From assembly GCF_045037415.1 (NCBI RefSeq), contig NZ_CP173439.1: a DNA stretch of 64,000 nucleotides; one strand, given 5' to 3'. A model generated the notes under the pieces. It made no database searches. It was not told the DNA's origin and saw only the letters and a list, made by a program, of their open reading frames with translations. Positions 53,791 through 54,960 of the stretch are shown in pieces. The stretch's first letter is position 1. Every line of letters starts with the position of its first letter. The position numbers were made by a program, and so were the translations under genes. The DNA is from Escherichia coli. GTDB taxonomy: Bacteria > Pseudomonadota > Gammaproteobacteria > Enterobacterales > Enterobacteriaceae.

Positions 53791-54960
53791 ATGAATCAGA
53801 AGTGGAAGACGCTAATAGTTTCAGTATTAACACCATCAAGTATTATATCAGGGATTGCGTTGATAGTTCTCTGGGGATATTTCAGTCGTCTGGATCGACT
53901 TGATATTTTCTTTGATGTGATGAATATTAAAAGCATCTTGGTATTGGTTTGTTGTACAACTATTCTATCATTGATTATGATCATTTTTATTTTTTTTATA
54001 ACATCTTTTTTTATACCAATAGTTATTCCTTATGATATAAAAAATCTTCCTGCTTACAATAAGATTCAGGGTAATTTTTTATCTGTAATGATGTTATCTG
54101 GCCTCTTCCCCATGGCCTTTATATACGTGTTATACTGTGCATTTGATTTTGACCAGAGTGTTAAAGATAACTCTGGCTGGTTATCTATTTTAAGTATAGG
54201 AGTACTAATAGTTGTTATTTCAGCCATAATAAACACGAGGTATCTTGAATATGACTTATCGTTTAAAAATAATAGAATGAAACTGTTGAGACGTGTTCAG
54301 ATCTATCTTGTCATTCCGTTGTCTATTGCTTTACTGGTGCATCTTCAGGTAATTCCACTGGAGATGGTTTTTAGGAATATTGAAACTTCAGATAAGAGTA
54401 TTAATTTCAAAGTGATAGCTGAACTGGCTTTCATGTCATATTTTATTTTTATTCTGACAATACTTCCCGGCCTCATTTATCTAAAAATGAATCCACAGCA
54501 TAAACTTTCTAAAAGAATTAGTTCTGCATTTGTCGCATCCTTGATGATATTATTAGTTATATCGACTCAAATAACCGTATTACCAGTAATTTTTACCCAT
54601 TCAGTTATTAAGCTCTCAGGTATAAGTGACTTCAAAATACATAGCTACATTATTAAAACAAGTGAATATCCGGAGGAGTTTTTTTCCAATGCAGTATGGG
54701 GTAAAAAAAATATAAAACCGGGGGAATATTACTCTGTGCAGGCTGTTTCTATGTTTACGACAAACCAGTTTATTCTCCTTTGTCCCAAGGATATTATAAG
54801 GTTTTATCGGGAAAGCTGGAAGTTCGACCTGCTTAATGTAGACTTCGATACAAATACCAGGAAGAAACTCCAGGAAGAAGCAGCATATTGCGTACCAATT
54901 TCTGCAATATCTGTAAAACGATGGGATATGCCTCTTCAGGGCTCGAAACCCTCAAATTAG
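53791..54960 (+). CDS. polytopic inner-membrane protein of unknown function (AT-rich)
   Basis: 389-aa ORF with about 9-10 hydrophobic helices and hydrophilic C-terminal about 110 aa; AT-rich flanks. Confidence 0.5.
   Translation: MNQKWKTLIVSVLTPSSIISGIALIVLWGYFSRLDRLDIFFDVMNIKSILVLVCCTTILSLIMIIFIFFITSFFIPIVIPYDIKNLPAYNKIQGNFLSVMMLSGLFPMAFIYVLYCAFDFDQSVKDNSGWLSILSIGVLIVVISAIINTRYLEYDLSFKNNRMKLLRRVQIYLVIPLSIALLVHLQVIPLEMVFRNIETSDKSINFKVIAELAFMSYFIFILTILPGLIYLKMNPQHKLSKRISSAFVASLMILLVISTQITVLPVIFTHSVIKLSGISDFKIHSYIIKTSEYPEEFFSNAVWGKKNIKPGEYYSVQAVSMFTTNQFILLCPKDIIRFYRESWKFDLLNVDFDTNTRKKLQEEAAYCVPISAISVKRWDMPLQGSKPSN

Follow-up and report, generated by a model that had tools for sequence, protein, structure and literature searches.

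A 64,000-nucleotide stretch of Escherichia coli DNA (assembly GCF_045037415.1, contig NZ_CP173439.1), which we refer to in full as the window, carries beside its RepFIB replicon an AT-rich gene for a 389-amino-acid polytopic membrane protein that is annotated as 'hypothetical protein' in every database record. Our tentative reading, which we hold as a possibility, is that this protein is a non-enzymatic, stand-alone protective factor that acts at the cell envelope by exclusion or defence, a proposal that follows from the company the gene keeps in genomes (guilt by association). As a hypothetical cargo gene it is ordinary; its prevalence, its lack of relatives in family or fold, its consistent address on mobile elements and its defence neighbourhoods are unusual.

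The open reading frame (ORF) occupies positions 53791..54960 of the plus strand, starts with ATG and encodes 389 amino acids, as the original prediction had stated. An AGGAAG lies 6 nt 5' of the ATG, and the annotated start is further supported by an MNxKW N-terminus that is invariant across relatives at 53-90% identity. The strong AT-richness ascribed to the gene and its flanks was likewise found, with a G+C fraction (GC) of 0.30-0.32 over 53400-54800 versus 0.50-0.57 over repA/int and the insertion sequence (IS), and of 0.335 in the coding sequence (CDS; 0.37, 0.31 and 0.33 at the three codon positions); the neighbouring genes confirm the location given for it, between the RepFIB recombinase and IS2. 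The CDS is that of WP_001072359.1 of pVR50B, to which window positions 50255-58000 are 99.8% identical, and its product differs at 1 residue from pUTI89 P045 / pRS218_060.

Four lines of evidence, namely prevalence, family size, taxonomic range and selection, establish that the gene is real. A HMMER search of 1.84 billion cluster representatives returned 113 matches, about 60 of them full length (365-430 aa), and these full-length members, each standing for a cluster at 50% identity, align end to end down to approximately 16% identity. The ratio of nonsynonymous to synonymous substitution rates (dN/dS) was 0.29 against an allele at 93% identity and 0.09 against a relative at 69%, which indicates that the gene is under purifying selection. 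All named members belong to the Enterobacterales (Escherichia, Salmonella, Klebsiella, Citrobacter, Enterobacter, Lelliottia, Erwinia, Pantoea, Dickeya, Brenneria, Morganella and Xenorhabdus), apart from rare Vibrio records. Many of the family's database matches are fragments; we considered whether shorter relatives of about 185-207 aa, with two transmembrane (TM) helices and the domain, represent a minimal architecture, and rejected this because their starts fall within TM helices or loops and they resemble gene fragments.

The gene is common on the IncF virulence and resistance plasmids of extraintestinal pathogenic E. coli (ExPEC; pUTI89, pRS218 and pVR50B types), yet it has neither a name nor a family. 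It was present in 1250 of 5426 complete E. coli genomes (23%), in which 1258 of 1265 copies were on plasmids, and in 1190 plasmids of PLSDB, where 765 carry an allele at 99% identity or more and 384 one at about 93%. At least 80% of the ORF is retained in 1152 of these 1190 plasmids, and +/-1 slippage in a T8 tract has disrupted the ORF in a sizeable minority of copies; such interrupted copies mark the gene as dispensable, not as spurious.

We then modeled the protein using AlphaFold2 and an alignment of 63 family sequences, and obtained a confident model (pLDDT 92.3, pTM 0.87) in which seven TM helices lead into an alpha/beta domain starting near residue 277. Both a hydropathy scan and the helices of this model yield seven TM segments in place of the 9-10 hydrophobic helices originally described, with residues 47-79 forming a single long kinked helix, not two, while the hydrophilic C-terminal domain of that description is present at residues ~273-389, and the call of a polytopic membrane protein of unknown function stands. 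The family-mean count of lysine plus arginine is 12.2 for the N-terminus and loops 2, 4 and 6 together and 3.4 for loops 1, 3 and 5, and from this positive-inside charge bias the N-terminus is most likely cytoplasmic and the C-terminal domain of about 115 aa most likely periplasmic.

Conservation among the 63 sequences is concentrated on the side of the protein predicted to face the periplasm, being highest in loop 1 and the C-terminal domain and lowest in the cytoplasmic loops. Loop 1 is the best-conserved loop, and its column entropy is lower than that of any other region, with R36 kept in 83% of sequences, F40 in 84%, and D38 in 79% plus 8% with E (T, S or N in the remainder). The C-terminal domain carries the motifs SGISD, Y-P, W303 and L-x-C-P. 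It contains a mean of 2.03 cysteines, compared with about 0 in the loops, and both C331 and C367 are invariant (63/63). Because this invariant pair lies in the domain and the loops lack cysteine, Cys331 and Cys367 probably form a structural disulfide. The only other invariant residue in the family is P226. These patterns lead us to infer strongly that the working surface is the periplasmic face made of loop 1 and the C-terminal domain, and, since no catalytic-type polar residue is invariant, that the protein more likely binds or blocks something than catalyzes a reaction; an enzyme or a transporter would suit the pattern less well.

The family is unnamed and has no detectable solved relative. 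Scans of the protein and its 63 relatives against PADLOC, PHROGs, Pfam and NCBIfam gave nothing usable, consistent with the original view that no family is recognizable: NCBIfam and PHROGs had no match, the nearest Pfam entry was DUF6338 (PF19865) at 11.4 bits against a cut-off of 26.5 (E = 0.24), touched by just 3 of 63 members (best E 0.026), and a profile search against PDB sequences returned noise only. In a 5.8-billion-protein set the profile found relatives that are all 'hypothetical' and have no Pfam domains. Structure prediction gave a confident model and no convincing PDB fold match; a Foldseek search with the model found nothing below E = 0.4 and TM-scores of at most 0.29. Bundles of the MtrD/MtrE, RnfA/NqrE and ABC-2-type permease kinds matched the membrane domain at an identity of just 4-11%, with a root-mean-square deviation of ~4 Å at best and 12-24 Å lower in the lists, and we treat this resemblance between model and solved structures as generic helix packing. 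SH3/Sm-like beta-barrels resembled the C-terminal domain at fold level only, with scores below the homology level; unlike those barrels, the domain has extra helices, a conserved, probable disulfide and a membrane tether, and is predicted to be periplasmic.

We next compared the surroundings of the gene across lineages. By BLASTN, the p2_0.1 plasmid, which bears the 93% allele, matches window positions 53337-54983 at 92% identity. Besides the gene, this 1.65-kb module comprises only an AT-rich leader of about 450 bp and the 23 bp that follow the stop codon; farther downstream the DNA is not the same. Because the shared unit holds the gene and its leader alone and is followed by different DNA, 53337-54983 is a single-gene, horizontally mobile cargo cassette adjoining RepFIB, and it encodes an inner-membrane protein of seven TM helices. 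At the same site, plasmid F carries an alpha/beta hydrolase gene and ompP in place of the gene. Homology to plasmid F stops at 53363, inside a 62-aa ORF, and this endpoint, together with the sharing of the module across contexts, bears out the foreign origin that base composition had suggested.

In nearly all lineages the homologue is a solo gene in mobile-element cargo. We found it beside int on IncF plasmids, beside a different integrase on other enterobacterial plasmids, after a TraG_N gene in a Xenorhabdus integrative and conjugative element (ICE), in a Dickeya int-AlpA-primase island, in a small int / PemK-MazE / Ash island at different chromosomal sites in Klebsiella pneumoniae and E. 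coli, in E. coli islets that are IS-flanked or of the AlpA/YfjJ type, beside a TerY-P triad on a metagenomic contig, and at one lambdoid prophage end; in Morganella it occupies a plain chromosomal site between a phosphotransferase system (PTS) operon and a siderophore operon. What recurs in the neighborhood is this cargo setting; no conserved partner gene was found across the contexts examined. We also considered a conserved pairing of integrase and gene, and rejected it: the divergent integrases that stand beside the gene in IncF plasmids and beside the homologues at about 60% identity (the 60% tier) show no close homology to one another (BLASTP E = 0.027), so integrase adjacency is a type of address and not a co-inherited pair.

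A defence gene or defence candidate lies within 1-2 genes of the homologue in about 5-6 of ~11 independent contexts, a proportion for which there is no background rate for comparison. These neighbors are a PDC-S31 gene in Dickeya (E = 4e-32), a HEC-08/DUF3644 gene in Lelliottia (E = 3e-158), genes for BrxR, an LmuA-like/metallo-beta-lactamase (MBL) protein and E1-E2-JAB on plasmid CP085859, the TerY-P triad on the metagenomic contig, and, in K. pneumoniae and E. coli, a gene for a 1263-aa protein whose matches to Cap4-type nuclease/LmuA-like (N-terminal) and AAA_16 models are weak and fall below the cutoff. In Xenorhabdus a type I restriction-modification system is located ~5 kb away; a reverse transcriptase there was rejected as a defence neighbor, since it looks like a group II intron or a generic reverse transcriptase. 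The 1263-aa protein, judged by its sequence matches, looks like an uncharacterized STAND-like defence candidate; its gene stands tail to tail with the homologue in the int/PemK-MazE/Ash island (locus L022, 10294-14085, minus strand; locus L026, 10296-14087, minus strand). On the far side of RepFIB, pVR50B has an IS-flanked JAB/MPN remnant of the E1-E2-JAB type and a sister plasmid has an AbiJ-like gene in the same position (1039-1617 in L001 and 1191-1931 in L002, both close relatives of the window), which suggests that cargo and defence genes are exchanged in the neighborhood of RepFIB.

If the protein is indeed protective, the mobile element would supply its host with an inner-membrane protein as protective cargo, and the periplasmic face of that protein could hinder phage or conjugative DNA crossing the periplasm and inner membrane; alternatively, it may sense the entry of foreign DNA. 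Taken to its full extent, this proposal would make the proteins a new Enterobacterales-restricted, single-gene family of envelope defence or exclusion with an unseen fold, in which a seven-TM anchor and a disulfide-locked periplasmic SH3-like domain block or sense the entry of phage or conjugative DNA, and in that complete form we consider it doubtful.

F TraS, SXT Eex, T4 Imm and Sp, P22 SieA and HK97 gp15 are small inner-membrane exclusion proteins of ~80-250 aa with 1-4 TM helices. Our protein is like them in being encoded by a single mobile-element gene with no adjacent partner, and in its inner-membrane location, its presumed action where periplasm and membrane meet, and its apparently non-enzymatic nature; it is unlike them in having 389 aa, seven TM helices and a predicted folded periplasmic domain, and no sequence relation to them appears in Pfam or PHROGs. 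In contrast to the conjugative entry exclusion genes (traS, eex), the IncF copies sit beside RepFIB and int, outside the tra region; adjacency to traG, as for TraS/Eex, occurs in Xenorhabdus only, and there is no TraS-type match in Pfam. The gene resembles the PDC-S and HEC candidates in being cargo of plasmids, ICEs and int-AlpA-primase islands, where it stands directly beside PDC-S31 and HEC-08 members, whereas most of those candidates are cytoplasmic nucleases or nucleoside triphosphatases and this is a polytopic membrane protein.

Several observations weigh against a protective role. Mobile-element cargo regions also hold many non-defence genes, and there is no nearby defence gene in Morganella, in the E. 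coli islets or in the window itself, where the gene is beside that for a haem receptor; the PDC and HEC neighbors are themselves unvalidated candidates. At E <= 10 the protein matches none of the 5027 models of PADLOC-DB v2. Classic prophage superinfection-exclusion genes are phage-borne, whereas this family is nearly absent from viral sets: tblastn of 50,697 phage genomes gave 0 matches, and IMG/VR contained 0 loci for the window's clade and 1 for a distant clade, located at the extreme end of a contig from a lambdoid prophage. The periplasmic face is conserved and non-diversifying, which fits a conserved target and is not the usual signature of an arms race, and frameshifted copies are common, showing that loss of the gene is tolerated. 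Finally, literature searches on the accession and the locus tags turned up no study of its function, the gene appearing only as a marker for polymerase chain reaction (PCR). As the 'hypothetical' pRS218_060, it was PCR-positive in 96% of neonatal meningitis E. coli (NMEC) versus 10% of faecal commensals (PMC4155114). Both primers of that assay are present in the window sequence, and the NMEC association probably tracks the plasmid.

An unlikely alternative is that the protein is an envelope enzyme or transporter with a fitness or virulence benefit, such as a GT-C/Wzy-like glycan- or lipid-modifying enzyme, a channel or a permease. Genes of this kind are often AT-rich and horizontally acquired, as this one is, but the family shows no invariant polar residues, partner genes or fold match. 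No fold similarity was found between the protein and solved GT-C, SEDS or ligase structures. GT-C and Wzy-type proteins would be expected to have an essentially invariant acidic residue in the first periplasmic loop; in loop 1 here, position 38 is D in 79% and E in 8% of the 63 sequences and T, S or N in others. In none of the contexts examined does the gene adjoin glycan genes; an aryl-polyene cluster lies near one E. coli homologue, separated from the gene by IS elements. An ABC-2-type permease would combine a six-TM fold with an adjacent ABC ATPase, a combination that was not found here, with no gene for a partner subunit or ATPase nearby.

We regard as less probable still that the gene is an orphan immunity gene, whose product would shield the cell from a toxin active in the periplasm or inner membrane (a colicin, a bacteriocin, or an effector of type VI secretion (T6SS) or contact-dependent inhibition (CDI)) and which mobile elements would keep without the toxin gene. 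A conserved periplasmic face, stabilized by the inferred disulfide, is what binding to a conserved toxin might call for, and the gene is solitary on mobile elements. In Lelliottia plasmids, moreover, the homologue is followed after 530 bp, in the same orientation, by a fragment of a gene for a T6SS L,D-transpeptidase effector of the Tlde1/DUF2778 type, but this is one observation in one lineage, and in no other context is a cognate toxin gene adjacent. Known immunity proteins to pore-forming colicins and periplasmic T6SS effectors are also far smaller, at ~80-180 aa with 0-4 TM helices. The Tlde1/DUF2778 fragment consists of the N-terminal 33 codons (L007, 9681-9782) and is cut by an IS3-family element.

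It is improbable that the gene is a silent or decaying passenger, a xenogeneic, H-NS-silenced sequence hitch-hiking beside RepFIB: its very AT-rich composition, the frameshifted copies on ~990 contigs, the fragmentary database matches, the ability of plasmid F to manage without it and the passive carriage that adjacency to an essential replicon allows would all suit such a passenger, but they are set against dN/dS values of 0.09-0.29, a length and architecture kept to 16% identity across the Enterobacterales, three full-length alleles that are each present on at least 1000 contigs, and independent acquisition of the cassette by many types of element.

The frameshifts map to the T8 homopolymer in the Phe-rich codons of TM helix 2, a run that is T7 or T9 in many plasmids of otherwise nearly the same sequence. 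At five loci that we examined the tract was T7 (four loci) or T9 (one), and all five were annotated as a 282-aa C-terminal fragment starting at Met108, the exact fragment that is recorded on ~990 contigs. We considered programmed phase variation through this tract and found it not supported, because neither the 93% allele nor the other tiers conserve the T8 run, and because such a run is expected from composition, with 70% of synonymous-codon shuffles containing a run of at least 8. The T7 and T9 copies look like incidental slippage and decay, or in part like assembly error.

If the protective reading is true, the gene would be among the commonest plasmid-borne defences in clinical E. coli, given its presence on the IncF plasmids of about a quarter of strains, and it would bear both on phage therapy against ExPEC and on which plasmids and phages enter IncF-carrying strains. 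If it is instead a silent passenger, it would still be useful for marking a slot next to RepFIB that takes single-gene cargo. A confident model with no detectable solved relative also makes the protein a reasonable target for structural work.

Features of the membrane-protein gene and of its surroundings, in window coordinates
Feature	Position	Strand	Residues	Basis or remark
RepFIB repA	51118-52095	+
Tyrosine recombinase gene int	52380-53120	-		246 aa
62-aa ORF between int and the membrane-protein gene	53241-53429	-
AT-rich 5' region, presumed promoter and leader, co-inherited with the gene	53337..53790	+		GC ~0.27-0.31; BLASTN
CDS of the 389-aa protein	53791..54960	+
Membrane domain	53812..54606	+	8-272	Hydropathy and AlphaFold2
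TM helices			~8-30, 47-79 (kinked), 95-117, 128-150, 167-191, 206-231, 244-272
Periplasmic loop 1 (predicted)	53881..53928	+	31-46	G/D-R-L-D-x-F on a short helix
T8 homopolymer	53990..53997	+		+/-1 frameshift hotspot
C-terminal alpha/beta domain, predicted periplasmic	54607..54957	+	273-389
Cys331 codon	54781..54783	+	331	Invariant
Cys367 codon	54889..54891	+	367	Invariant
IS3-family (IS2-type) element ORFs	55841-57114	-
TonB-dependent haem receptor gene	57351-59321	+

In the leader there is an upstream ORF (uORF) of 20 codons at 53727-53789 (MKCNNLFSLFYALFIAKPGS); a strong Shine-Dalgarno sequence, GAGGAG, precedes its ATG by 7 nt, and its stop codon lies 1 nt ahead of the ATG of the membrane-protein gene. 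The uORF was rejected as a conserved feature, being missing in other tiers and frame-broken in the 93% allele, and comparison of the alleles suggests that it is probably not functional. Matches to promoter consensus sequences in the 5' region were no more frequent than in shuffled sequence, and Rfam found nothing in the upstream regions of either the window gene or the 60% tier. A study using differential fluorescence induction sequencing (DFI-seq) attributed promoter activity to the divergent P046/P047 region and not to the membrane-protein gene (PMC5404293). Homologues at 57-69% identity have a common upstream motif, …TC(G/C)GGTAGGTGCCT(G/T)(A/T)AC…TGT(A/G)(A/T)(C/A)GCTG(C/A)TAAT…, about 40-90 nt before the start (L011 ~7930-7975, L013 ~75-120, L007 ~7935-7975), which is missing in the window's allele. 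The motif had no Rfam match and its three-sequence consensus fold was weak (-5 kcal/mol); it may be a promoter or operator.

Some GenBank records label the 62-aa ORF 'serine/threonine protein kinase', and RefSeq calls it 'hypothetical'; Pfam gave no match for it, and its length is far below that of a kinase. Downstream of the membrane-protein gene, the IS2-type element (~55807-55830 and the ORFs listed above) replaces most of a PapB-like regulator gene that is present in pUTI89 and that lies ~850 bp 3' of the membrane-protein gene; pUTI89 retains only part of the element. Elsewhere in the window, a gene at 45154-45903 on the plus strand encodes a bactofilin-domain protein (PF04519, E = 5e-22), surrounded over 42358-49870 by IS21, IS3, IS30-like and IS91 remnants.

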